Source: an uncultured Prevotella sp.
GTDB lineage: Bacteria; Bacteroidota; Bacteroidia; Bacteroidales; Bacteroidaceae
Reading direction: 5' to 3'
DNA length: 64,000 nucleotides
NCBI GenBank assembly: GCA_900540885.1
Contig: UQHJ01000001.1
Location: 9,734 to 73,733 of the forward strand
The translations under genes were made by a program, and so were the position numbers. Under the pieces are notes generated by a model. It searched no databases. It was not told the origin of the DNA and was given only the letters and a program-made list of their open reading frames with translations. Shown piece by piece: positions 6,889 through 55,535 of the stretch; position 1 is the first letter of the stretch, and each line of letters starts with the position of its first letter.

Positions 6889-6978
6889 AGGAAACTTTTT
6901 GATCTCTCGTAACGAAATGTGTGGGTGCAATAATTTATAAGGAATAAATATAACTTGCAGTTTTATCCACACGATTCA

Positions 6979-7143
6979 TAAGATAGGCTGCGGCTCAGCA
7001 ATGAAAATGAAAGTTTTCTGACTTTCATTTTGCATTGCGCTCGCCTTGCACTATCTTTAGATAAGATATGCTGCGGCTCGGCAATGAAAATGAAAGTTTT
7101 TTGACTTTCATTTTGCATTGCGCTCGCCTTGCACTATCTTTGC
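6979..7143 (+). repeat. two tandem ~82-bp hairpin units ending in a Bacteroidetes -7 box (…TTTGCATTGCGCTCGCCTTGCACTATCTTTG); promoter-bearing repeat family
   Basis: The unit AAGATAGGCTGCGGCTCRGCAATG-[palindromic core]-TTGCATTGCGCTCGCCTTGCACTATCTTT occurs twice here. It recurs at 9310-9506, 24318-24463 and 49395-49525 (inverted), always abutting a gene start. Confidence 0.7.
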
Positions 7144-7175
7144 ACACTGAAAATGAGTTGTCCGAATAAGGATAA

Positions 7176-7211
7176 CCCCGAGTGCTTGGTAAACCTCGTA
7201 AAAAACAAGAT
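7176..7211 (+). promoter_or_regulatory. candidate preQ1-I riboswitch aptamer in the leader of yhhQ-queC-queF
   Basis: CGAG(7179-82)/CTCG(7195-98) P1 stem with a 12-nt loop UGCUUGGUAAAC, then tail UAAAAAACAAGA. The tail CAAG (7206-09) can pair with loop CUUG (7185-88) as an H-type pseudoknot. Resembles the Tte (CUGGGUCGCAGUAACCCCAGUUAACAAAACAAGG) and Bsu queC aptamers. Lies 3 nt before the ATG of a queuosine-precursor transporter. Confidence 0.55.
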
Positions 7212-7213
7212 AT

Positions 7214-7939
7214 ATGATAAATAATAATATATGTTCTTCAGCCACAGGGGCGAAGCGTCGACCTGTGGTGAGTGTCACCTACATGATGTTGGGTGTACTC
7301 TTTTGTGTATGTTTAATAGCGGCCAATTTGCTCGAAACGAAGCAAATCTGTATCGGTCCGCTTGAGTTAACCGCAGGACTCATTGTCTTTCCCGTCTCTT
7401 ATATCATCAACGACTGTATGGTCGAGGTGTGGGGGTATCGCCGTGCGCGCTTAATCATTTGGTTGGGCTTTTTTATGAACTTCCTGTTCGTTATCTTCGG
7501 TTTTGTAGCTGATATATTGCCAGGAGCTTCTTATTGGAAAGGGCAAGAAGGCTTCCACGCTATCTTTGGGTTAGCACCGCGCATTTGTGCTGCTTCGTTT
7601 TTAGCCTTCTTAGTAGGTTCATTCTTAAATGCCTATGTGATGAGTGTGATGAAACTCAAGTCAAATGGAGGACGTCACTTCTCGTATCGAGCCATTATGT
7701 CAACTTTGGTAGGTGAAACGAGTGATTCTCTCATTTTCTTTCCCTTAGCATTGGGTGGGGTAGTGCCTTGGTCAGTTATGCCCTTGTTGATGATTAACCA
7801 AGTGGTGCTAAAGACATTGTACGAAATCATAGTACTCCCCATTACCATTCGCGTTGTACGCCGTCTAAAAAGCTATGAAGGGGAGGACGTATATGACGAA
7901 AAAATCTCCTATAACGTTTTGAAAATCTTTGATATTTAA
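7214..7939 (+). CDS. yhhQ: queuosine precursor (preQ0/preQ1) transporter, YhhQ/VUT family
   Basis: 241-aa polytopic membrane protein. YhhQ-like N-terminus (…ANLLETKQI..GPLELTAGLIVFPVSYIINDCMVEVWGYRRARLIIWLGF). Immediately upstream of queC-queF. Confidence 0.75.
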   Translation: MINNNICSSATGAKRRPVVSVTYMMLGVLFCVCLIAANLLETKQICIGPLELTAGLIVFPVSYIINDCMVEVWGYRRARLIIWLGFFMNFLFVIFGFVADILPGASYWKGQEGFHAIFGLAPRICAASFLAFLVGSFLNAYVMSVMKLKSNGGRHFSYRAIMSTLVGETSDSLIFFPLALGGVVPWSVMPLLMINQVVLKTLYEIIVLPITIRVVRRLKSYEGEDVYDEKISYNVLKIFDI

Positions 7940-7954
7940 TTATTCATATACAAC

Positions 7955-8659
7955 ATGAACGCATCACATCAACATAACCTGCCTATTGATACAGGTCTTA
8001 TTCACGAAAAGGCCTTGGTAGTATTTAGTGGTGGACAGGACTCTACCACCTGCTTGTTTTGGGCTAAAAAGCACTTTAAGGAGGTTTACGCACTGAGTTT
8101 TGTGTATGGTCAAAAACATGTACACGAAGTCGAGATCGCCCAACAAATAGCACAGGAGGCTGGTGTACACTTCGACCAAATGGACGTAAGCTTTATTAGT
8201 TCGTTGGCACACAACTCACTCACCGACTCCAGTATCGTTATGGATCAAGTAAAGCCCGCCGATGGCCCTCCTAACACGTTTGTGCCTGGACGCAACCTTT
8301 TCTTCTTGAGCATCGCTGCCGTTTATGCGCGTGAGCGTGGCATTCGTCATATCGTAACGGGCGTTTCGCAAACAGACTTCTCAGGCTATCCCGACTGTCG
8401 CGACTCTTTTATACGTTCGCTTAACGTGACGCTCAACCTCGCTATGGAAGAGCAATTCGTAATTCACACTCCCTTGATGTGGATTGATAAGTGCGAGACT
8501 TGGGCTTTGGCCGATGAATTGGGAGTGCTCGACTTAGTGCGCTATCGCACCCTCACTTGTTATAATGGCGTAGTGGGCGATGGTTGTGGCCACTGTCCAG
8601 CTTGCAAGCTGCGTCGTGAAGGCTTAGAAGAATATTTAAAAATTAAAAACGAGAAATAA
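7955..8659 (+). CDS. queC: 7-cyano-7-deazaguanine synthase QueC
   Basis: PP-loop [12 protein letters not shown]-terminal Zn motif [10 protein letters not shown]. Confidence 0.9.
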
Positions 8660-8668
8660 AGGATATAT

Positions 8669-9124
8669 ATGCGTGACGACTTACATTTAAACGCTTTAGG
8701 TAGCAAGACAGAATACAAAAGCGACTATGCTCCAGAGGTGCTTGAAACCTTTGTCAACAAACACCCTGGCAACGATTATTGGGTTCGTTTCAACTGTCCT
8801 GAGTTTACCAGTCTCTGTCCCATTACAGGCCAGCCCGACTTCGCAGAAATTCGTATAGCCTACTTACCCGATACCTTAATGGTAGAGAGTAAAAGTCTCA
8901 AACTCTATCTTTTCAGTTTTCGCAATCACGGCGACTTCCATGAAGACTGTGTCAACATCATTATGAAAGACCTCATCAAGCTCATGAACCCAAAGTATAT
9001 AGAAGTGACAGGTCTCTTTACTCCACGTGGTGGCATCAGCATTTATCCCTATGCCAACTACGGCCGTCCTGGCACGAAGTATGAAAAGTTAGCCGAATAT
9101 CGTTTGCAACAGCACGATCTTTAA
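8669..9124 (+). CDS. queF: NADPH-dependent 7-cyano-7-deazaguanine reductase QueF (unimodular type)
   Basis: [18 protein letters not shown] thioimide Cys motif and [16 protein letters not shown] QueF motif. Confidence 0.9.
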
Positions 9125-9214: not shown

Positions 9215-9290
9215 AACTGGAATTTGTCGGCCAAAACACCCCATTCCTTAATGGGAGGGGGTGTTCTGGCCGACAAATTCTATTTTATCA
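9215..9290. terminator. long hairpin (23-bp stem) after queF; diverged member of the AAACTGCAAT-terminus foldback family
   Basis: gaatttgtcggccaaaacacccc-[loop]-gggggtgttctggccgacaaattc. Preceded by cgtgtgggtaaact, which matches the outer TIR of the 23974-24241 element. Confidence 0.5.
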
Positions 9291-9309
9291 AAATCTGAAA
9301 TAATGCATT

Positions 9310-9506
9310 TTCCTTTTCATTGCGCTCGCCTTGCACTATCTTTAGATAAGATAGGTTGCGGCTCGGCAATGAAAATAAAAAACGCGTTTTTTCTTTTCAT
9401 TGCGCTCGCCTTGCACTATCTTTAGATAAGATAGGCGGCGGCTCGGCAATAAAAATAAAAAACGCGTTTTTTCTTTTCATTGCGCTCGCCTTGCACTATC
9501 TTTGCA
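9310..9506 (+). repeat. 2.5 tandem ~90-bp units of the promoter-bearing repeat family, ending 24 bp before yicC
   Basis: …cattgcgctcgccttgcactatcttt agataagataggYYgcggctcggcaatRaaaataaaaaacgcgttttttcttttcattgcgctcgccttgcactatcttt ×2. Core palindrome aaaaaacgcgtttttt. Confidence 0.7.
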
Positions 9507-9529: not shown

Positions 9530-10408
9530 ATGATACAGTCAATGACGGGCTACGGCAAGGCCGATGTCCACTATAATGGTAAGAAGATACATGTAGAAGT
9601 TAAGTCGCTCAATAGCAAGAGCATGGACTTGAGTACGCGTATTGCACCGCTTTATCGCGAAAAAGAAATGGAACTTCGACAACTCCTATCAAAGTCGTTA
9701 GAGCGTGGTAAGGTAGACTTTACGCTTTGGGTAGAGAAAGATGAGACTTCTGCTGCTGGTACGATTAATGCTGAAGTAGTGGCTAATTATGTTGGCCAAA
9801 TTCGTCAGATTTGCAAAGCACAGTCATTGCCCGAACCTGAAAACGTTTGGGAAGTTGTATTGCGTATGCCTGAAGCTGTACAAGTAAATACGGCCGAGGA
9901 ACTGACTGATGAAGAGTGGCAGGTCGTACTCAGTGCTGTAAATGAAGCTATCGCAGGTCTGGTGGCTTTCCGTAAGCAAGAGGGAGAAGCCCTTTATAAG
10001 AAGTTTACTGAAAAGGTAGACAATATAGAACGTTTGTTGGGCGAGATTGAACCTTATGAAACGGGACGCGTGGATAAGATTCGTCAGCGCTTGCTCGAAC
10101 GCTTGCAAGAACTAAAAGGCGTAGACTATGATAAGAATCGTTTAGAGCAAGAATTGATCTATTACATCGAGAAACTTGACATTAGCGAAGAGAAGCAGCG
10201 CTTGACCAATCACTTACGCTACTTCCGTGAGACGATGCAAGAGAGCGAACGTGGATTGGGCAAGAAACTTGGCTTTATAGCCCAAGAAATGGGACGCGAG
10301 ATTAATACCACGGGTTCGAAGAGTAATCAGGCAGAGATGCAAAACATTGTGGTGAAGATGAAGGATGAGTTGGAGCAGATAAAGGAACAAGTGCTTAACG
10401 TAATGTAA
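9530..10408 (+). CDS. yicC: YicC/YloC-family stress-induced protein (endoribonuclease)
   Basis: N-terminal MIQSMTGYGKA and YicC-like length/composition. Confidence 0.85.
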   Translation: MIQSMTGYGKADVHYNGKKIHVEVKSLNSKSMDLSTRIAPLYREKEMELRQLLSKSLERGKVDFTLWVEKDETSAAGTINAEVVANYVGQIRQICKAQSLPEPENVWEVVLRMPEAVQVNTAEELTDEEWQVVLSAVNEAIAGLVAFRKQEGEALYKKFTEKVDNIERLLGEIEPYETGRVDKIRQRLLERLQELKGVDYDKNRLEQELIYYIEKLDISEEKQRLTNHLRYFRETMQESERGLGKKLGFIAQEMGREINTTGSKSNQAEMQNIVVKMKDELEQIKEQVLNVM

Positions 10409-14809: not shown

Positions 14810-15277
14810 TTATACGCCTTTTCCATTTCTTAATTGAGTTAATAGTATTGTTGAAGTTTTATAAGCTCCACCAAAAGTTAGTTCGTAATTTATGCTATTA
14901 CTCGTCTTGTTTTCTTTAAGCGTTATTCGCAGAGAATGGGGAGTTGTCGATAGTATTTCGATCTTACCCCAATTCTCTTCACAAATTGTATAAGGTGTAG
15001 GACGTTTCAAGTCATTATCAGTAACGCTATAATAGTAATTCCCTACCTTTATTTGTGACAAGAATCCATTCTTTGCATTTTTCCCAATAGATGTAATGGT
15101 TACAATACCTCCTGCAGAACCAATTTCTGCATAATAAGATGTACCACTTGGCTTTGATAGAGTAATGCCAGTAGTTTTAAACTTAATGTTTTCAAACTTC
15201 TCTTCTTCATTGCTACAAGCTACAAAACTTAAGCAACATAGAATGGTTGTTACCACGAGATATGCACAGTACTTCAT
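14810..15277 (-). CDS. hypothetical lipoprotein
   Basis: Signal plus lipobox (SFVACSNE). 155 aa. Confidence 0.55.
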   Translation of the reverse strand: MKYCAYLVVTTILCCLSFVACSNEEEKFENIKFKTTGITLSKPSGTSYYAEIGSAGGIVTITSIGKNAKNGFLSQIKVGNYYYSVTDNDLKRPTPYTICEENWGKIEILSTTPHSLRITLKENKTSNSINYELTFGGAYKTSTILLTQLRNGKGV

Positions 15278-15411
15278 TTTGTAATTATTGAGTATTCAAG
15301 ATTATATTTAAAATTAGGTGAAGATCCTATTTGTGAAACAGAGCGTGTTTGTGCTCTATTTCGAATAGAAAGCACTTCTGCCATTTTTATAGATTTTGCT
15401 GCACATCAGTA

Positions 15412-15837
15412 TTACTGCATGCGCCATTGTTTTCCGTCGAATATCATGGGGAGCATGACTTCTTCTTTGCTACCGTCCTTATAATTTACGTTGAGAAAGA
15501 CGTTGGCCATGCGGCCATTGTTGTGCAATTCGGTGCGTAGCACTTGTACGTTACTAACACCTTGCTTCTCGTCATTTATTTGCTTTTGATGTTGGCGCAA
15601 CATTACGATAATGCGCTCCTTATAGGCATCTGTTGTCCCGTCACATGAGTGCATGGCTTTGACGTAGTCGTCAAACAGTCCGTTGGCTTGCATCTTGTAG
15701 CAAGCGATAGCCATTGTGTCAGCTTCTTCGCTGGTAGGAAGTTGGGCGGCATTGTTCGTGCGATTGCTGCAACTTGTTGTAAAGCAGAGGGCTATGAAGA
15801 GTGATAGGAAGGGTGCAAATAAATGATTGTTTTGCAT
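15412..15837 (-). CDS. hypothetical lipoprotein
   Basis: Signal plus lipobox (CFTTSCSN). 141 aa. Immediately downstream of der. Confidence 0.55.
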   Translation of the reverse strand: MQNNHLFAPFLSLFIALCFTTSCSNRTNNAAQLPTSEEADTMAIACYKMQANGLFDDYVKAMHSCDGTTDAYKERIIVMLRQHQKQINDEKQGVSNVQVLRTELHNNGRMANVFLNVNYKDGSKEEVMLPMIFDGKQWRMQ

Positions 15838-15841
15838 GTGA

Positions 15842-17158
15842 TTACTTCTGTCTGATAAAGATGTTAATTGGTGTACCAGTAAAGTTCCAACGCTCGCGAA
15901 TCTTGTTCTCCAAGAATCGGCGGTAGGGCTCCTTTACGTATTGTGGTAGGTTGGCATAGAACACGAATGAGGGAACTTGCGTGTTGGGCAACTGTGCACA
16001 ATATTTGATTTTGATGTACTTACCCTTGATTGAGGGTGGTGGATATGCTTCAATGAGTGGCAACATCTCTTCGTTGAGTTTAGAGGTAGAGATGCGACGC
16101 TTGCGAGCTACGTACACTTCTTTGGCCGTTTCGAGCACCTTGAATATGCGTTGCTTGGTAAGTGCAGAAGCAAAGATAATGGGGAAGTCTACGAATGGCG
16201 CCATGCGGTTGCGAATGGCTTCCTCGAAGTGGCGGATGGCCGTGTTTGACTTGTCTTCAACTAAGTCCCACTTATTCACGACAACAACGATGCTCTTGCA
16301 GTTCTTCTGAATGATTTGAACGATGTTGAGGTCTTGACTCTCAATACCGCGTGTGGCATCAATCATCAAGATACAAACGTCAGAGTTTTCGATAGAGCGA
16401 ATGGCACGCATAACAGAGTAGAACTCTAAGTCTTCTGTTACCTTATTCTTACGGCGAATACCTGCGGTATCAACCAAATAGAAGTCAAAGCCAAATTTGG
16501 TGTAACGCGTAAGAATGCTATCGCGTGTGGTACCAGCAATATTGGTCACAATGTTGCGGTCTTCACCAAGGAAAGCATTGATGATGCTGCTCTTACCTGC
16601 ATTAGGACGGCCTACTACGCTGAAGCGTGGAATGTCGTCTTCAGCTTCATTGCCGTTATCGTCCTTACCCAACTTCTCGATGATGAGGTCGAGGAGGTCG
16701 CCCGTTCCGCTACCTGTGATAGCAGAAATGCAGAAGGGATCGCCAAGGCCTAATTTGTAAAATTCGGCAGCGGTATAACGATCTTCGTTGTTGTCGGTTT
16801 TGTTGGCGCACAAGATAACGGGCATATTGGTGCGACGCAGAATTGATGCTACTTCAGCGTCTAAGTCGGTGATTCCGTTCTTTATGTCAACGACGAATAG
16901 GATAACGTCGGCTTCTTCGGTGGCAAGGGTTACTTGCTTACGGATTTCACCTTCGAATACGTCGTCAGAGTTTACTACCCAACCGCCTGTATCAACGATT
17001 GAAAATTCTTGTTTACCCCATTCGCATTTGCCATATTGACGGTCGCGTGTGGTGCCGGCTTCATCGCTGACAATGGCCTGGCGTGTTCCCGTAAGGCGGT
17101 TGAACAGGGTTGATTTGCCGACATTGGGTCGGCCAACTATGGCTACTAATTTTGACAC
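15842..17158 (-). CDS. der: ribosome-biogenesis GTPase Der (EngA)
   Basis: Two tandem GTPase domains (GRPNVGKST / GRPNAGKSS) plus a KH-like C-terminus. Confidence 0.9.
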
Positions 17159-23973: not shown

Positions 23974-24241
23974 TGTTGATTCGTGTGGGTAAACTGCAAT
24001 TTATCTGCCTAATTGGGGGACGCGCCCTCACCTGGGGGCGACGCGTCCCCGCGTCGGCATTGCCAACTTGGGGTTCGATGCCCCAAGTTGGCAATACTTA
24101 AAGTATGGATATTCATGTATTTGCATGTCAAGGCCTCGAGCCTTGACTTACAAATGCCGACGCGGGGACGCGTCGCCCCCAGGTTAGGACCCGCCCCCCA
24201 ATTAGGCAGATAAATTGCAGTTTACCCACACGAATCAACAT
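23974..24241. repeat. 268-bp compound foldback element with 46-bp perfect terminal inverted repeats (ATGTTGATTCGTGTGGGTAAACTGCAATTTATCTGCCTAATTGGGGG)
   Basis: Whole element is a near-perfect palindrome with nested inner inverted repeats and small hairpins. ORF 24013-24213 inside is spurious. Confidence 0.75.
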
Positions 24242-24317
24242 AGCCCAAACATTCTTTTAGAATTTTCCTATTTGTTATATTTTATTGTGAGTTATCACGG
24301 ATTATCTTATCTTTGCC

Positions 24318-24463
24318 TAAGATAGGCTGCGGCTCAGCAAAACGTTCAAGCAAGCTTGACGTTCTGCATTCGCCTTGCACTATCTTTGCACAAGATAGGC
24401 TGCGGCTCAGCAAAACGTTCAAGCAAGCTTGACATTTTGCATTCGCCTTGCACTATCTTTGCA
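24318..24463 (+). repeat. two tandem 73-bp units of the promoter-bearing repeat family, ending 32 bp before the TPR regulator ATG
   Basis: taagataggctgcggctcagcaaaacgttcaagcaagcttgacRtt(c/t)tgcattcgccttgcactatctttgca ×2. Core palindrome aacgttcaagcaagcttgacgtt. Confidence 0.7.
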
Positions 24464-24494: not shown

Positions 24495-26122
24495 ATGAAG
24501 TACAAGTTCTTTAATATTATTTTTGCTATTATCTCATTAAGTTTCCTATTATGTTGTCAATCACAAACACATAAGGAGTTGTGTAATGCTGACAATCTGC
24601 TTGAAACGAATATAGACTCTGCTCAAAGAATCGTACAGTCAATTCAACCGAGTTCATTGCATAGCTTGGCAGATAGTGCGTATTATGTGTTACTGAAAAG
24701 TATTATAATCTATAAGCGCTATGAAAAGCAACCTACTTCTACACTTGATTTCCCCGTTCAGTTTTATGAAAAGGAGGAGAACTATAGACTCTTACAAAAA
24801 GCATACTATTATCGGGGAGCTATAAATGTTGATAATAAAGGTAAAGCGGAGATTAGCGCGCTTGACTTTAAGAAAGCGGAAAACTTGAATGAAATCGTAA
24901 GAGATTCTTCTTTAATAAAGAAATTATATGGATCGATGACTAGTCTGTATTTTTCAAGCAAAAATTATCATGAACATTTAATTTACGAAAAGAAATCTTT
25001 AAAATTAGCACAACAACTGGATGACAAAGAATTGCAAGCTTGTTACTATAGTGGCATGGCTATATGCCTTAAGGCTTTAGGTTGGCTGCGCCATACGTTG
25101 ATTCATCATTGTCTTTTGTCAATTATATGCCTCAAAAGGAAAGCCAATCTGCCATCTATTGTAATAGTGGTAATTTTTTTGTCGATCATGATCTTAACAA
25201 GGCAAGTTCCTATTATCGTAAGGCATTATCTCTAAATCCCAACAATGAATTAGCAATGTTTGGAATGCTAAAAGTAGCAGTATATAAAGAAGATGAAAAG
25301 AACATTGACTACTGGGAAAGCAAGATATCTACTACCAACGATAATGAGCTAAAAGAAGAGATCTATCAGCTTTTAAAGAACGATGCGCAAAAGAAAGGCC
25401 AATTTAAAAAGGCCTATTTCTATTCAAAAAAAATAGATAGTCTCAATTTTAAACTGAAAGCAGCCATAACAACTTATAAGGTGGAGAGCGTTCAAAAATC
25501 ATATAAACATTCCGTAAACGATGAACTAATGACTAAACAAGCTCATCATAAACTCTATACAAGCCTTATAGGTTGTACCATATTGTTGATATTGACTTCA
25601 TTTATGATTGTAATGAATAAAAGAGGGAAAAATAACATTAACTCATTAGAAATAAATGTAAGCCAACTTGGTAATAAAAATAAAACAATGGAAACTTCCA
25701 TTAAGGAAAAGAATGACATCATCACTCAGCTACAACAACAAATAAAAGTGATAGAAGAATCTAACAAAGTTGAGAAAAAGGCATCAAAAAAATCTATAGA
25801 AGAAATAAAGCAGGGGTTAGCTATTTTGCTTCGTGTATTCCAAAACGAAAAAGGTGCTTTATACGACAATAAGAGCAGAAAATTATTCATTTTGTGTTAT
25901 AAAATCATAGATAAAGATTTTATATCAAAATTAGAAAATGAGGCAACACTGCAAGAACAGCTAATCTGTGTGCTTATACATAATAATTTTTCAAAAGAAC
26001 AGATTATTAATGTACTATCATTATCTGATGAAGCTTTTCGAAAACAAAAAAGTCGTACATTGAACAAGCTCAAAGATAAGGAAGGACTACAGGACGTTTG
26101 TGACATTTTAAGCATAATTTAA
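24495..26122 (+). pseudogene. frameshifted TPR-repeat sensor / LuxR-type HTH one-component regulator (lipoprotein signal, periplasmic TPR, single TM, cytoplasmic HTH)
   Basis: Two overlapping frames (24495-25235 and 25082-26122) carry one continuous TPR protein. Both frames are open over 25073-25235. Upstream frame MKYKFFNIIFAIISLSFLLCCQ… (lipobox). Downstream frame carries the TM segment LYTSLIGCTILLILTSFMIVM and C-terminal LQEQLICVLIHNNFSKEQIINVLSLSDEAFRKQKSRTLNKL (LuxR/sigma-r4-like HTH). Confidence 0.55.
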
Positions 26123-39529: not shown

Positions 39530-39850
39530 TCATGTTTCATTTTTATGTTTCAACTTATTGATTATCAATACTTTCGAAGGCTGAAACATACGACTTTTAT
39601 GTTTCATTTTTAGTTTCAATGTTTCATACTCTAAAAACACTGAGGGAGCGAAACAAAAACACTGTGGGAGCGATTTCAAAACCCAATGGGAGCGAAACAA
39701 AAACACTGAGGGAGCGTGAAAGCGCTCCCTCAGTGTTTTGAAGAATGAAACATGAAACTAAAAGTGAAACATTGAAGTCGTATGTTTCATATTTCTAAAT
39801 GACTGATATTCAATTATTTTATAACGAAAAATGAAACATGAAAGATAAAT
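39530..39850. repeat. composite foldback: flanking TGAAACAT/ATGTTTCA motif clusters in inverted orientation around four tandem 22-bp repeats (AAAACACTGAGGGAGCGAAACA) that end in a perfect 13-bp hairpin
   Basis: Tandem units at 39633-39718. Hairpin cactgagggagcg-tgaaa-gcgctccctcagtg at 39705-39739. At least 10 TGAAACA/TGTTTCA copies. Outer inverted pair gaaacatacgactt / aagtcgtatgtttc. Confidence 0.6.
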
Positions 39851-39898
39851 CAAAGGTACTGAAAACGTATGGATATATGTGAGCCAAATTGCAGTTTA

Positions 39899-40663
39899 CT
39901 ATTTCCCCTCCTGCTCCACCTTCTTCACCTTGCGGAACAAGTCTGAAGCAAATATAAAACTATTCAGGCGTTCATTATCTGACGACATAACATCGTCCTT
40001 TGTGCCCTCCCACTCGTTATGACCTTGATAGATATAAAGTATGTGTTCACCAATACCCATCACTGAATTCATATCGTGCGTATTAATAATTGTGGTCGTG
40101 TTGTACTCTGTGGTAATATCATGTATCAGTTCATCAATTACCAACGACGTTTTTGGGTCAAGACCTGAGTTTGGTTCGTCACAGAATAGATACTTAGGAT
40201 TGAGCGCAATAGCACGAGCTATAGCCACACGTTTCTGCATACCACCCGATATTTCGCCAGGAAACTTTGCCCCAGCGTCCGACAGGTTGACACGGTCTAA
40301 GCAGAATTGCGCACGACGTAAACGTTCCTTATAACTATCGTTAGAGAACATATCAAGCGGAAACATTACATTCTCCAACACTGACATCGAGTCGAACAAG
40401 GCCGCATTTTGAAATATCATCCCCATTTCTCTACGCAGCAAAGCACGCTCGCGCTTCGTCATTTGCATAAAACTACGTCCGTCGTAAAGCACATCTCCTT
40501 GCGTGGGTTCAAATAGGCCAACGATGTTCTTTATTAACACCGTCTTGCCCGAACCGCTCTGACCGATAATAAGGTTGGTCTTTCCACTCTCAAATGTTGA
40601 AGTGATTCCCTTCAAGACTTCTTTCCCATCAAACGATTTGTGTAAATTCTTTATTTCGATCAT
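39899..40663 (-). CDS. mlaF: ABC transporter ATP-binding protein, MlaF-like
   Basis: Walker A GQSGSGKT. Signature LSGGMQKRVAIARA. Walker B LFCDEP. Confidence 0.8.
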   Translation of the reverse strand: MIEIKNLHKSFDGKEVLKGITSTFESGKTNLIIGQSGSGKTVLIKNIVGLFEPTQGDVLYDGRSFMQMTKRERALLRREMGMIFQNAALFDSMSVLENVMFPLDMFSNDSYKERLRRAQFCLDRVNLSDAGAKFPGEISGGMQKRVAIARAIALNPKYLFCDEPNSGLDPKTSLVIDELIHDITTEYNTTTIINTHDMNSVMGIGEHILYIYQGHNEWEGTKDDVMSSDNERLNSFIFASDLFRKVKKVEQEGK

Positions 40664-43682: not shown

Positions 43683-43737
43683 TAAGCAGCAATTTATCTG
43701 CCCAATTAGGCCGATAGATTGCAGTTTATCTCTCAGT
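43683..43737. repeat. minimal/degenerate member of the AAACTGCAAT-terminus foldback family
   Basis: gcagcaatttatctgcccaattagg ccgatagattgcagtttatc. Confidence 0.45.
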
Positions 43738-48220: not shown

Positions 48221-49387
48221 TTAGAAGCGTGCCGTCACCTGTACGTCAAACGTGTTGTAGTGTGCGTCTTTTGGTGTTGCAGCGTGTCGTGCTGAGCGGT
48301 CGTCAGTAAAGGTGTAGTTGAGTTGGAAAATGAGGTTCTTACCTAAAGTATAATTCCCCGACAGACCGTAGTTCGCACAAAGTGATTGCCAAGAGCGCTT
48401 ATCGTTTCGATAGCAATCGTAGCGACCGTATATCTTAAGTCCCTTAATAATAGGTACTCCCACCGTAGCATACCAAGCGTCAGAGTGGGTGGGGGCAGTA
48501 GCATCGGTCACTACACCACCATACGAACTCATATATTCACCGCGCACTGTCCAATCGCTTTCATATTTTAGGCCAGCTCCCCAGCGAACGCGCTTTACGT
48601 CTTTCAGACTTTTGGGATCAGCAGCGTTATACTTCTCGTTCGTATATTTGCCATTCCAACCAAAGCCACCGATGCAAAGGTTCTTTACGGGTGAGATCCA
48701 CATGCCGCCAATCACGTCTTTATGCTTGTTCTTGTCCGTATGGTTAATGCCTTGACCATTAAATACGCCCACTTGGTAGTGCACCCACTTGTGACCATCA
48801 GAGGCTGGCAACAAGTCGCCCTGCACTTGCAGACCCAAATCGCGTCCCGAACTCTTATTATAGCTGCCTTCGCCATTGCGGTCGTTGATAGAGGCCAACT
48901 TCATCGTAGCTTGCGAATAAGAACCCATACCAATGGCTAAGGGGCTCATCGGGTTCTCAAATCCAAACGAACGCTTAAACTGTCCTAACTTTACGCGGAA
49001 ACAGTCATACTTTTGCCATTCCATAAAGGCATCAAGCACGCGAGGCCCTTTGTTGTCACCTGGAGCATCATTCACCTCCATTTGGAGTTTGTAGTAGAAG
49101 TCGCGATAAACGTGACCATCGAGGTAAAGTCGGATAAAGCGAAGGTCGAACCCCCCGTTTGTATCTTTATGCTTTTGGTCGCTAATGCTATATTTGCCCA
49201 TGATGTAACCCCCAAACTTTATGCTGGGTTGCATCTTTTGTAGGAATTTGTTGTCCGAGTTTTTAGCTGTAAGCGTATAGCCTTCCGTCTCATAGTCAAG
49301 ATGGTTCGTATAATCATTAGGAGGCGTATCTTCAGCCCACGTACAAAGTGGCGAGAGTGCTAGAAGAAGGGGAAGTATTTGTTTCAT
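48221..49387 (-). CDS. phosphate-selective porin O/P family protein
   Basis: Signal MKQILPLLLALSPLCTWA. Porin_O_P-like repeated beta-strand pattern. C-terminal …VTARF. Start chosen at the second Met; the upstream extension lies inside the repeat elements. Confidence 0.75.
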   Translation of the reverse strand: MKQILPLLLALSPLCTWAEDTPPNDYTNHLDYETEGYTLTAKNSDNKFLQKMQPSIKFGGYIMGKYSISDQKHKDTNGGFDLRFIRLYLDGHVYRDFYYKLQMEVNDAPGDNKGPRVLDAFMEWQKYDCFRVKLGQFKRSFGFENPMSPLAIGMGSYSQATMKLASINDRNGEGSYNKSSGRDLGLQVQGDLLPASDGHKWVHYQVGVFNGQGINHTDKNKHKDVIGGMWISPVKNLCIGGFGWNGKYTNEKYNAADPKSLKDVKRVRWGAGLKYESDWTVRGEYMSSYGGVVTDATAPTHSDAWYATVGVPIIKGLKIYGRYDCYRNDKRSWQSLCANYGLSGNYTLGKNLIFQLNYTFTDDRSARHAATPKDAHYNTFDVQVTARF

Positions 49388-49394
49388 AATATTT

Positions 49395-49525
49395 TCTTTT
49401 GTTATTGCAAAGATAGTGCAAGGTGAGCGCAATGAAAAGGAAAATGCAATTTTTCTTTTCATTGCCGAGCCGCCGCCTATCTTATGTAAAGATAGTGCAA
49501 GGTGAGCGCAATGAAAAGGAAAAGT
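49395..49525 (-). repeat. two tandem units of the promoter-bearing repeat family (reverse orientation), abutting the porin start
   Basis: Reverse complement reads …ttttcattgcgctcaccttgcactatctttacataagataggcggcggctcggcaatgaaaag…ttgcgctcaccttgcactatctttgcaataac. Confidence 0.7.
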
Positions 49526-49542
49526 GTGAAACTCTTTAAGCT

Positions 49543-49710
49543 AAACTGCAATTTATCTGCCTAATTGGGGGGCGGGTTTTTAACCCGCGGCAGCAGCAGG
49601 CTTGAACATCTACTTATAGTTGCTAAGCGACCATAAGCTACATGCTGCTGCCGCGGGTTAAAAACCCGCCCCCCAATTAGCCCCCCAATTAGGCAGACAA
49701 ATTGCAGTTT
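49543..49710. repeat. 168-bp foldback with the same AAACTGCAATTTATCTGCCTAATTGGGGGG termini as 23974-24241 but an unrelated palindromic core
   Basis: Core ggcgggtttttaacccgcggcagcagca…tgctgctgccgcgggttaaaaacccgcc. Right end duplicated (ccccccaattag ×2). Confidence 0.75.
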
Positions 49711-49865
49711 ATTTTTGTCATAAAAATAATAAGTCCTGTACTGTTTGCGATTAACACGAAGAGTAAATGTCCCTGACGGTGTACCTAAGGGTTTTATCTT
49801 ATAAGCAAAACAAAAACTCCTCACAAAAGAAGTATTAAATCTTTTGTGAGGAGATTTGTTTGTAT

Positions 49866-50225
49866 TTATGCTCCAACGCATTGGCTGCGTTTGCAAAAGC
49901 GGACGCATTGGGCGGTAAGGTCGTAACCCAACATGGTGCCAAGCATAAAGTCCTCGGCTGGGGTGAGGGCATGCATGGGTTTGCTAATGAAGGTGCGCAC
50001 CACGTTAAGGCATACTTCGTTGCCAAAGTAAAGGTTGAGTTTGTTAGCCGAAACGGGTTGCTCAAGGTAGGCTATCTGCTGTTCGCTAAGGCGCTGGCGC
50101 ATAATGGCCGCACACTCACTCGACATGGTGCAAAGCACTAATTGTCGAACACCTTTGCGATATTCGTAAATTTGGTGCATGAATAGCTTGAGTGAGTCGA
50201 AACGAGAGAAGTCTTCAGCACACAT
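49866..50225 (-). CDS. DUF2023-like small protein (flavodoxin-associated)
   Basis: About 120 aa from MCAEDFSRFDSLKLFMHQIYEYRKG…, 16 bp downstream of the flavodoxin stop. Start chosen at M35 because the longer ORF would overlap the flavodoxin gene. Confidence 0.5.
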   Translation of the reverse strand: MCAEDFSRFDSLKLFMHQIYEYRKGVRQLVLCTMSSECAAIMRQRLSEQQIAYLEQPVSANKLNLYFGNEVCLNVVRTFISKPMHALTPAEDFMLGTMLGYDLTAQCVRFCKRSQCVGA

Positions 50226-55037: not shown

Positions 55038-55439
55038 TTATTTCATAAATACGAAGTAGACAGCAGCCACTAAGCAGGCAAAGGCTGCAATGTGGTTCCA
55101 GTGAAAAGCTTCACCTTTAAACATAAACGTGGCGACGACGGTAAATACGATGAGTGATACCACCTCTTGTATTACTTTGAGTTGAATAAGACTAAAGGGT
55201 CCTCCGTTGTCAATAAAGCCAAGGCGGTTGGCGGGTACTTGACACATGTATTCGAAGAGAGCGATTCCCCATGAGAAGAGTATAACGGCAATGAGTGGCC
55301 AGTTGCGGCTAATGCCCGCCTCTTGTAGCTTTAGGTGGCCGTACCACGCGAAGGTCATGAAGATGTTAGAACAGATAAGAAGTAATATGGTGTAAAATCC
55401 TTGCATGCTTAGTAAATGTGTAAATGTGCGAATGTGCAA
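55038..55439 (-). CDS. DMT-family small membrane protein (DUF486-like)
   Basis: 133 aa, four TM helices. Confidence 0.6.
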   Translation of the reverse strand: MHIRTFTHLLSMQGFYTILLLICSNIFMTFAWYGHLKLQEAGISRNWPLIAVILFSWGIALFEYMCQVPANRLGFIDNGGPFSLIQLKVIQEVVSLIVFTVVATFMFKGEAFHWNHIAAFACLVAAVYFVFMK

Positions 55440-55535
55440 ATGTGCAAATGCGTTGTGAATGTGCAGTTAAAATTTTTAAGTCATTATTATATTTACACAT
55501 TCTCACATTCTCACATTTGCACATTTCCTACTCTC
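55425..55535. repeat. inverted array of AATGTGC octamer repeats (foldback)
   Basis: taaatgtgtaaatgtgcgaatgtgcaaatgtgcaaatgcg…gaatgtgcag / tacacattctcacattctcacatttgcacattt. Confidence 0.65.

Follow-up and report, generated by a model that had tools for sequence, protein, structure and literature searches.

Tandem palindromic units ending in a -7 promoter box precede four genes of a gut Prevotella and belong to a repeat family widespread in Bacteroidales

The stretch of DNA analysed in this study, hereafter referred to as the window, comprises 64,000 nucleotides from an uncultured Prevotella sp. (contig UQHJ01000001.1) and contains four short arrays of palindromic units arranged in tandem, each of them placed directly upstream of a gene. 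According to Tandem Repeats Finder, array 1 extends from 6978 to 7141 (period 83, 2.0 copies, 96% matches), array 2 from 9308 to 9503 (period 80, 2.5 copies) and array 3 from 24308 to 24463 (period 73, 2.1 copies), while array 4, which is located on the minus strand, occupies positions 49395 to 49525 and amounts to 1.5 copies. In total, the four sites hold seven full and two truncated units. These are given below together with the genes behind them; scores refer to R1, a covariance model which was trained on units from other genomes and then run on the window.

6980-7059, plus strand: unit 1 of array 1, full, with the -7-like box TATCTTTA; R1 88.3 bits, hairpin fold z = -5.5
7063-7142, plus strand: unit 2 of array 1, gene-proximal, ahead of the yhhQ ATG at 7214; R1 89.2 bits
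7112-7115 and 7135-7142, plus strand: putative promoter of this unit, -33 TTTG and -7 TATCTTTG with 19 nt between them, as read from the sequence
7214-9124, plus strand: yhhQ(Vut_1)-queC-queF operon behind array 1, from the Pfam families of the called genes
9308-9344, plus strand: truncated unit of array 2, 3' half only, with a 41-nt deletion of the left arm; strains L001-L010 compared, some of which still have the arm
9348-9424, plus strand: internal full unit of array 2, junction TATCTTTAGAT; R1 88.3 bits
9428-9504, plus strand: gene-proximal unit of array 2, -7 box at 9497-9504, yicC ATG at 9530; R1 87.8 bits
9530-10408, plus strand: yicC, first gene behind array 2 (Pfam), followed by gmk and others
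24308-24315, plus strand: -7-like box TATCTTTG, followed by CCT, adjoining array 3 on its left; read from the sequence, with the same pattern at many loci
24319-24388, plus strand: unit 1 of array 3, short-core type with the loop GCAAGC; R1 63.9 bits
24392-24461, plus strand: gene-proximal unit of array 3, -7 box at 24454-24461, ATG at 24495; R1 67.1 bits
24495-25235, plus strand: gene of a 246-aa protein behind array 3, no match in a Pfam search
49408-49483, minus strand: gene-proximal full unit of array 4, -7 box at 49415-49408, porin ATG at 49387; R1 85.2 bits
49487-49525, minus strand: upstream truncated unit of array 4, 3' half only; sequence reading and strain comparison
48221-49387, minus strand: Porin_O_P gene behind array 4 (Pfam), relA/spoT next

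A preliminary description of the window had reported tandem hairpin units at these four sites, and Tandem Repeats Finder, the counts of the end motifs and the covariance model all confirm this. The right end GCCTTGCACTATCTTTG has nine true matches in the window, besides one unrelated match with three mismatches, where 0.21 would be expected by chance; the left end AAGATAGGCTGCGGCTCRGCAA is found seven times versus an expectation of 0.01. R1 recovers exactly the same seven full units (64-89 bits, E values of 1e-13 to 3e-20) and finds no further diverged copies within the 64 kb. All four TATCTTTG ends face the adjacent gene, and their distances to the start codon amount to 71, 25, 33 and 20 nt for arrays 1 to 4, so that the 24-70 bp claimed earlier are about right; a unit ending in a -7 box and aimed at a gene, as described before, is found in four of four cases. 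As to the TTTG or TTTC that was said to precede this box by about 19 nt, array 1 contains TTTG at 19 nt and arrays 2 and 4 contain TTTC instead, while in array 3 the spacing is 14 nt. Among the genes named earlier, yhhQ-queC-queF, yicC and the porin are supported by Pfam, whereas the label of TPR regulator is not supported and was rejected, the 246-aa protein in question having no Pfam match. Neither of the two genes behind array 3 (24495-26122; 246 and 288 aa) belongs to a significant Pfam family; the N-terminus of the 246-aa protein reads as a lipoprotein-like signal, MKYKFFNIIFAIISLSFLLCC.

When species-representative genomes were scanned with the 18-mer CCTTGCACTATCTTTGCA, at least 117 stretches containing such units were found. 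All counts of arrays, units and downstream genes from other genomes given in the following are counts among the matches listed for this 18-mer, from which 137 full units of 60-85 nt were extracted. In 5' to 3' order, a unit consists of AAGATAGGCKGCGGYTCGG, a purine-rich arm, a loop of 3-6 nt, a pyrimidine-rich arm, CKCTCRCCTTGCAC and TATCTTTG; family-wide, this layout can be written as AAGATAGGCKGCGGYTCGG, variable hairpin, CKCTCRCCTTGCAC TATCTTTGCA. The ends of the unit, which is 60-85 bp long, are AAGATAGG on the left and CTATCTTTG on the right. Each unit forms a single long imperfect hairpin from AAGATAG to CTATCTT that folds as RNA or DNA and from either strand. Its 5' arm is an imperfect mirror image of the 3' arm and harbours a conserved GC-rich box of its own, GGCKGCGGYTCGG, which is near-invariant across loci though it is absent from the search pattern. 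The central hairpin sequence, in contrast, differs nearly everywhere, yet the hairpin is always retained; the modular architecture of conserved flanks around a variable palindrome, as pointed out for the window before, is thus well founded. The consensus structure comprises two conserved helices, conserved internal loops, a bulged A and a variable stem-loop of 21-46 nt.

The constraint on this hairpin is evident from an alignment of 47 diverged units with a structure of 19 pairs, in which 94.3% of the cells are paired. Two-sided changes are found in 84 cells compared to 26.9 +/- 5 in shuffled alignments, none of 500 shuffles reaching a value as high, and in a control in which the partners were slid by 1-3 columns only 30-59% of the cells pair. 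The outer stem covaries even at the cost of an altered -7 box, as seen in the pairs AAGGTAG/CTACCTT, AAGTTAC/GTAACTT and AAGTTCG/CGAACTT. One-sided changes of the G-U type are scarce (about 8 cells), and the folding energy of the variable core reveals no strand bias (35 vs 39 units). Because the changes are two-sided and of Watson-Crick type, G-U pairs are rare and the core is free of strand bias, the covariation pattern speaks for DNA with Watson-Crick pairs rather than for a structured RNA. The strand asymmetry of the whole unit had been considered as evidence of an RNA function and was dropped, since it arises from the shared flanks, which are not independent, and the core is unbiased. The loops, on the other hand, are strand-specific, as is clear from their counts versus those of the complement: 15:0 for GCAAGC, 10:0 for ATAAAT, 6:0 for GCGAGC and 6:0 for CTTCG. 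In addition, the arms are skewed in base composition (54% A in the 5' arm, 56% T in the 3' arm), and the left-arm bases T16, C17 and C12 are invariant though unpaired. This polarity and the invariant unpaired bases go beyond what promoter function alone explains and therefore suggest that a protein recognises the folded single strand of the unit.

Judged by its motifs, the 3' arm of the unit amounts to a complete promoter of the sigma-A type of Bacteroidales. A layout of -33 TTTG and -7 TAnnTTTG has been mapped by differential RNA sequencing in Segatella copri, where the -33 box is reported for only about 15% of the promoters (10.1101/2024.04.05.588293). The -7 box of all four gene-proximal units of the window is TATCTTTG, which matches TAnnTTTG, and a -33 motif is placed as described above, i.e. 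as TTTG at 19 nt in array 1, replaced by TTTC in arrays 2 and 4 and spaced by 14 nt in array 3. Within the family, 61 of 127 distinct units contain TTTG 17-21 nt ahead of TATCTTTG, with a peak at 19. Where only one unit of an array carries the consensus TATCTTTGCA, it is the gene-proximal one in 35 of 37 cases, compared to 15.6 expected without positional preference. Internal junctions read TTTAGAT, TTTTGAT, TTTACAT or CTACTTTGCTTCGCG instead of the consensus box, and the internal boxes of the window are TTTA, devoid of the key G.

The preliminary description had asked for a tabulation of position and orientation relative to start codons. In other genomes, 99 of 120 arrays with a callable downstream neighbour face a co-oriented open reading frame (ORF), and from TTTG to the start the median distance is 48 nt, with an interquartile range of 25-121. 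On the upstream side, 51 neighbours are co-oriented and 57 opposite. The downstream genes are diverse, with 141 Pfam families in 84 proteins, none of which dominates; SurE, IMPDH, PdxJ, BipA, DnaX, OmpH and TetR-family proteins are included, and tRNA genes apparently follow two arrays (L112 and L121; read by eye, no tRNA finder). A common operator of one dedicated regulon, which had been put forward as an alternative to a mobile promoter, is disfavoured because the downstream genes, apparently with tRNA genes among them, are that heterogeneous.

The palindromic units are not peculiar to the source organism but constitute a family which is widespread in gut Bacteroidales. Judged by their record titles, nearly all of the matches listed come from this order, namely from Prevotella, Prevotellamassilia, Alloprevotella, Muribaculaceae, Barnesiella, rumen metagenome-assembled genomes (MAGs) and, as a variant, Alistipes; a match in Phocaeicola massiliensis originates from the plasmid collection. 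This collection contains two matches, both probably pieces of chromosomes. With one exact match in 2.9 million viral contigs, the family is essentially absent from these and not phage-associated. Rfam has no match in the whole window at gathering score, and for array 1, searched with E up to 10, spurious matches only (E above 2). The exact unit sequence strings were found in none of the papers searched, and papers on transposable elements of the miniature inverted-repeat type (MITEs), on repetitive extragenic palindromic sequences (REPs) and on transcriptomes contain no description of the family, which thus apparently has remained undescribed so far. The source organism itself belongs to the Prevotellaceae and is very abundant in the human gut; the assembly collection lists its YicC in 4,370 blocks, with Hadza and Nepali samples among them.

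The presence of the units is lineage-specific. R1 detects none in 367 kb of yhhQ loci from related genera, as opposed to seven in the 64-kb window, and in about 45 metagenomic contigs from other genera, whose YhhQ is 57-74% identical, the orthologous yhhQ promoter lacks the unit. In these approximately 45 loci the yhhQ-queC-queF operon is conserved, and a plain TATCTTTGCR or TACCTTTGCA box is situated at an equivalent distance from a conserved leader. Such a comparison has no counterpart at yicC, for which the best 120 homologues listed are all about 100% identical, with no diverged orthologue that would provide an empty site. Orthologues of window genes occur in unit-bearing loci elsewhere in distant cases only. 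In L116, a unit is placed upstream of a DMT_6 gene whose orthologue in the window (55038-55439) has none; upstream of the latter DMT_6 (DUF486) gene, at 55414-55526, the 8-nt tandem repeats AAATGTGC and CACATTCT are found where L116 has the unit. Furthermore, in L016, L054, L105 and L118, which belong to one MAG group of Bacteroidales, short-core units reside inside a GC-rich palindrome, GGCGGGCGTTTTTAAT-[unit]-AAACGCCCC, and this composite recurs at several loci, some of them not gene-facing.

Among strains, the arrays vary in length. With copy numbers taken from short-read metagenome assemblies, strains with identical YicC contain 1-4 copies in array 1 and 1.5-4 copies in array 2, the units being distinct by single-nucleotide polymorphisms (SNPs). 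The leftmost copy of the yicC array is full in seven strains and reduced to a half in the window and three others by a 41-nt deletion between AATGCA and AATTGCA. At the porin gene, three strains retain the 3' half only, joined to a different neighbouring repeat. Sharing of units across unlinked loci is directly observed as well: 19 of 88 units have a core which is at least 90% identical to one in another array of the same genome, on a different contig and between different flanks, as in L026/L108 (an identical 39-nt core), L104/L127 and L038/L086/L098. The unit of array 4 and the leftmost unit of array 2, in strains keeping the latter whole, have an identical 3' half, the core type of array 1 also precedes different genes in L071 and L097, and the mixed arrays of L106 and L126 consist of different units, each with its own covarying pairs.

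The borders of the units are instructive, too. A recurrent arrangement is that of a native box followed by a unit which itself ends in a box, an example being the box at 24308-24315 of the window. First units very often have a -7-like box on their left: 25 of 62 show a TTTG whose end lies exactly 3 nt ahead of AAGATAGG, and TTTTAAT and TTTACAT variants are common. In Phocaeicola, a 15-nt direct repeat, TTTCGCTATCTTTGC, lies on both sides of a unit, and the sequence which L026 and L108 have in common begins only at TTTGACCT. Three mechanisms would produce the box-unit-box arrangement, namely insertion 3' of TTTG(CA), duplication of the box upon insertion, or integration of an excised unit circle through recombination within the box. 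With regard to a target-site duplication of fixed length, a -7-like box is present on both sides of many units, but it varies in length and identity, and tandem duplication or recombination at the box would explain the pattern equally well.

Taking these observations together, we lean towards viewing the units as a duplicative, slowly and probably mobile palindromic promoter cassette located at -7 boxes. The gene-proximal unit would be the working promoter of the adjacent gene and the upstream units spare copies. Arrays may expand and contract via unit-length recombination, while deletions at microhomologies would remove left arms and spare the promoter half. New genes would be reached when a unit inserts, or recombines, at a -7 box that is already in place, and this would generate the sequence of native -7 box and unit ending in a -7 box. 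The substrate recognised when new promoters are colonised is probably the folded single-stranded DNA hairpin. The mobile promoter invoked in the preliminary description fits the absence from about 45 orthologous yhhQ promoters, the near-identical units at unlinked loci and the mixed arrays; insertion polymorphism between strains was not seen. The presence/absence comparison it proposed yields absence in other genera but, between strains, only copy-number and deletion variants.

Several points weigh against a mobile promoter cassette. We infer promoter activity from motifs and positions, and 21 of 120 arrays have no co-oriented ORF ahead, albeit with a crude ORF caller and with some units nested in another palindrome. 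Since the copy numbers derive from short-read assemblies they may be partly collapsed. The four arrays never shift position among the 10-20 strains, and because of these fixed positions any mobility must be slow. There is no empty site that could be aligned at nucleotide resolution, the nearest unit-free relatives being 57-74% identical in YhhQ. When 2,431 ORFs of 117 loci were clustered all against all, no transposase- or recombinase-like ORF was found to recur near the units. Finally, the ends are conserved order-wide far beyond what is usual for selfish repeats, and the unpaired left-arm bases T16, C17 and C12 are invariant; this suggests a function for the host which being a plain promoter would not account for.

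A more specific version of the cassette reading, to which we attach limited credence, regards the units as folded single-stranded DNA substrates of recombination or transposition, akin in architecture to attC sites or to the ends of IS200 and REP elements, which a conserved Bacteroidales enzyme would integrate exactly at the -7 box/transcription start, whereby the promoter would be rebuilt. If true, this would be a promoter-targeting and promoter-restoring element giving rise to strain-variable tandem promoter arrays.

The alternative that survives best, which we nonetheless consider unlikely, is that of a fixed cis-regulatory hairpin. Here, a host factor such as a nucleoid protein or global regulator, or a cruciform driven by supercoiling, would tune the embedded promoter and the arrays would result from local slippage. 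The near-invariance of GGCKGCGGYTCGG across families, including its unpaired bases and although it lies outside the search pattern, fits this notion, as do the good folding of both DNA strands, the constant array positions among strains and the recurrence of the housekeeping genes guaB, pdxJ, bipA and dnaX downstream. Against it stand, however, the heterogeneity of the downstream genes as a whole (141 Pfam families in 84 proteins), the absence of units from the orthologous yhhQ promoter of other genera and from 367 kb of relatives, and the existence of natural strains with deleted left arms. Near-identical units at unlinked loci and mixed arrays argue against a fixed site as well, and the strand-specific loops would not be needed by a symmetric double-stranded DNA or cruciform site.

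Distinctly less plausible to us is a function of the unit as RNA, in which the left -7 box would fire, transcription would start at about AAGAUAGG and the 80-nt hairpin would serve as a stabilising 5' leader, a small RNA or a terminator/insulator. In its favour, most first units and every internal junction have a -7-like box 3-7 nt ahead of AAGATAGG, in some cases (L019, L113) the terminal box is followed by the left arm alone as 5' untranslated region, the strand-specific loops include UNCG-like ones on the sense strand (CTTCGG, CTACGG, CTGCGG), and the hairpin ends in a short T run. Yet the covariation is nearly all of Watson-Crick type (about 8 one-sided vs 84 two-sided cells), the folding energy of the core lacks strand bias (35 vs 39), and the 1x1 mismatches in the core favour the opposite strand (4 G:T, 15 A:C). 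Moreover, no Rfam family matches, the internal boxes of the window are TTTA and hence miss the key G, and a separate terminator-like hairpin already lies ahead of array 2. As an intrinsic terminator the unit would be atypical, with A/T-rich stems of 25-35 bp followed by TTT only; its upstream neighbour shows no orientation bias, being divergent as often as co-oriented.

Slightly less probable again is purely selfish DNA, in which the TATCTTTG end would be an insertion target or duplication only, the native box would drive the gene and the unit would add no expression. The boxes on both sides of the units are compatible with this, and the GCA after the terminal TTTG looks native while internal junctions have lineage-specific linkers; the same holds for units nested in the GC-rich palindrome, a non-promoter context (L016, L054, L105, L118). 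On the other side, it is the unit itself and not the target to which the conserved spacer CCTTGCAC belongs, together with the -33 TTTG at 19 nt, and strains losing the rest of a unit retain precisely its promoter half. That the pattern is due to chance or is an artefact of assembly can be dismissed, for even though short-read assemblies are prone to collapse tandem repeats, the ends occur nine and seven times versus 0.21 and 0.01 expected, the same arrays with unit-specific SNPs are found in more than 20 independent assemblies, and hundreds of units exist across unrelated genomes.

Small repeats carrying promoters close to gene starts have precedents, the Correia elements (CREE/NEMIS) of Neisseria being one of them. 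These are non-coding, about 100-150 bp long with inverted ends, located near gene starts and equipped with outward promoter boxes; they alter the expression of neighbouring genes, and their presence varies by strain. Their terminal inverted repeats measure 26 bp, TA is duplicated at the target and an IHF site is present; they occur as single copies and are confined to one genus. The units described here are likewise small promoter-bearing repeats near gene starts but consist of one whole hairpin whose 3' arm is the putative promoter, form head-to-tail arrays and combine order-wide conserved ends with a hypervariable, compensated core; neither the TA duplication nor the 26-bp inverted repeats were found in them.

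Within the Bacteroidales, the BrickBuilt MITE/minisatellite of Porphyromonas gingivalis is an intergenic, tandem, multicopy repeat with experimentally demonstrated promoter elements, consisting of a 23-nt repeat with leader and tail subunits, bidirectional in promoter activity and species-specific (PMC4596501). Both it and our units are tandem promoter-bearing intergenic repeats of Bacteroidales, with no sequence or architecture in common. REP sequences, including BIME and REPIN, with their RAYT enzymes are clustered, short, extragenic imperfect palindromes which are non-autonomous and long-persisting and whose single-stranded hairpins are recognised by a single-copy host-encoded enzyme (PMC2817692, PMC3116915, PMC3733652). 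Unlike the units, REPs are 20-40 bp long, bear a GTAG/CGTC tag, reside mostly at gene 3' ends, lack a promoter and differ in sequence by species; the units measure 60-85 bp, end in AAGATAGG and CTATCTTTG instead of carrying the tag, and no RAYT gene is present in their 8-kb neighbourhoods.

An architectural parallel is provided by integron attC sites, imperfect palindromes of 57-141 bp in which the boxes at the ends are paired and conserved, as are certain unpaired or extrahelical bases, while the terminal stem-loop varies, also in length; their structure is conserved above sequence, they act as strand-specific folded single-stranded DNA, and they occur in arrays of chimeric sites (PMC4889954). 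Paired boxes, an unpaired spacer that contains extrahelical bases and a terminal structure that varies are found in the units as well, a likeness in architecture only. The ends of the units are AAGATAG and CTATCTT, and the attC core sites, with the R''/R' consensus RYYYAAC and GTTRRRY, are absent from them. The units directly abut each other with no gene cassettes in between, no integron integrase or attI was seen nearby and, unlike attC sites, they carry a promoter and are situated at gene 5' ends. Ends of insertion sequences (ISs) of the IS200/IS605 family and of their miniature derivatives are recognised as hairpins, transposed as single strands and inserted 3' of a short specific target without classical duplication (PMC6006769). 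An IS200/IS605-like insertion would explain both the location of units right after TTTG(CA) and the head-to-tail arrays. IS200/IS605, however, has two different subterminal hairpins, one per end, in contrast to the single end-to-end hairpin of the units, and no TnpA gene was found near the latter.

The MITE suggested in the preliminary description is not supported in its classical form. AAGATAG and CTATCTT are inverted, but complementarity spans the whole unit, so that the inverted repeats are the arms of one hairpin; a standard target duplication and a linked transposase were not found. Nor do the 117 loci contain a parent IS or transposase, as no arm pair encloses an ORF, no long element bounded by a left and a right arm was found, and no transposase-like ORF recurs. 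Hence, the family is one of promoter-bearing miniature repeats which lack the defining marks of Correia elements, REPs and attC sites. It is unusual in that the putative promoter is one arm of a hairpin, in its precise location at -7 boxes and in the order-wide conservation of its ends.

Further features were noted in the surroundings of the arrays. A second repeat family, which resembles MITEs and has inverted repeats of about 30 bp at its termini (TAAACTGCAATTTATCTGCCTAATTGGGGG), is present at 23990-24224, 49542-49711 and 43683-43728, and is located directly upstream of arrays 3 and 4. Its interior differs by strain, a version of about 170 bp alternating with one of about 300 bp, and three strains have its end, AAATTGCA, joined to the loop of the promoter unit, AAATTGCA. 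The porin upstream region (49390-49910; L209-L217) is a synteny breakpoint at which several contigs end; depending on the strain, it is DUF2023/flavodoxin/MnmA, RpoA-L17, a DUF2520 gene or a Fic gene that is found next on the upstream side. In the interval separating array 1 from yhhQ, the leader at 7175-7206, CCCGAGTGCTTGGTAAACCTCGTAAAAAACAAG, is conserved upstream of yhhQ in other genera as GAGTGCTTG..AACCTCGT or CGTGTATTCTAGAACACCACGTAAAA; it resembles a preQ1-I-type riboswitch, with no match in Rfam even when E values of up to 10 are admitted. A long near-perfect GC-containing hairpin, GAATTTGTCGGCCAAAACACCCC...GGGGTGTTCTGGCCGACAAATTC, situated behind queF and ahead of array 2 (9222-9282), is terminator-like and has a strain-variable loop.

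At greater distance, the segment from 37975 to 39899 comprises 1.9 kb of repeat-rich DNA without an ORF of at least 80 aa. It contains a 46-nt exact duplicate (38140-38185 and 39413-39458), short repeats of the TTTCATG type and the 22-nt tandem repeat AAAAACACTGAGGGAGCGAAAC in 3.8 copies (39633-39716), which runs into an inverted copy (39700-39740). In L001-L010, at about 15750-16160 (window about 15277-15412), the interval between two minus-strand genes differs in length by about 170 bp (243 vs 413 bp); promoter units are not involved in this polymorphism.

In the gut of humans and animals Bacteroidales are dominant, and their promoters are unlike those of the Escherichia coli model. Because the units break short-read assemblies and mark synteny breakpoints, they are of relevance to strain-resolved metagenomics. 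The covariation of their hairpins and the strand-specific loops point to a protein reading a DNA hairpin and thus offer a lead to new recombination or regulatory machinery. As a natural, compact and portable promoter module, the unit would also be of use for genetic tools in Prevotellaceae and Muribaculaceae. In the organism studied here, it precedes genes of queuosine salvage and biosynthesis, yicC-gmk and a porin-relA pair, in 1-4 copies depending on the strain. A repeat family that brings a full -33/-7 promoter with it and is multiplied ahead of housekeeping genes would act as a general source of variable expression and of promoter turnover in these bacteria.

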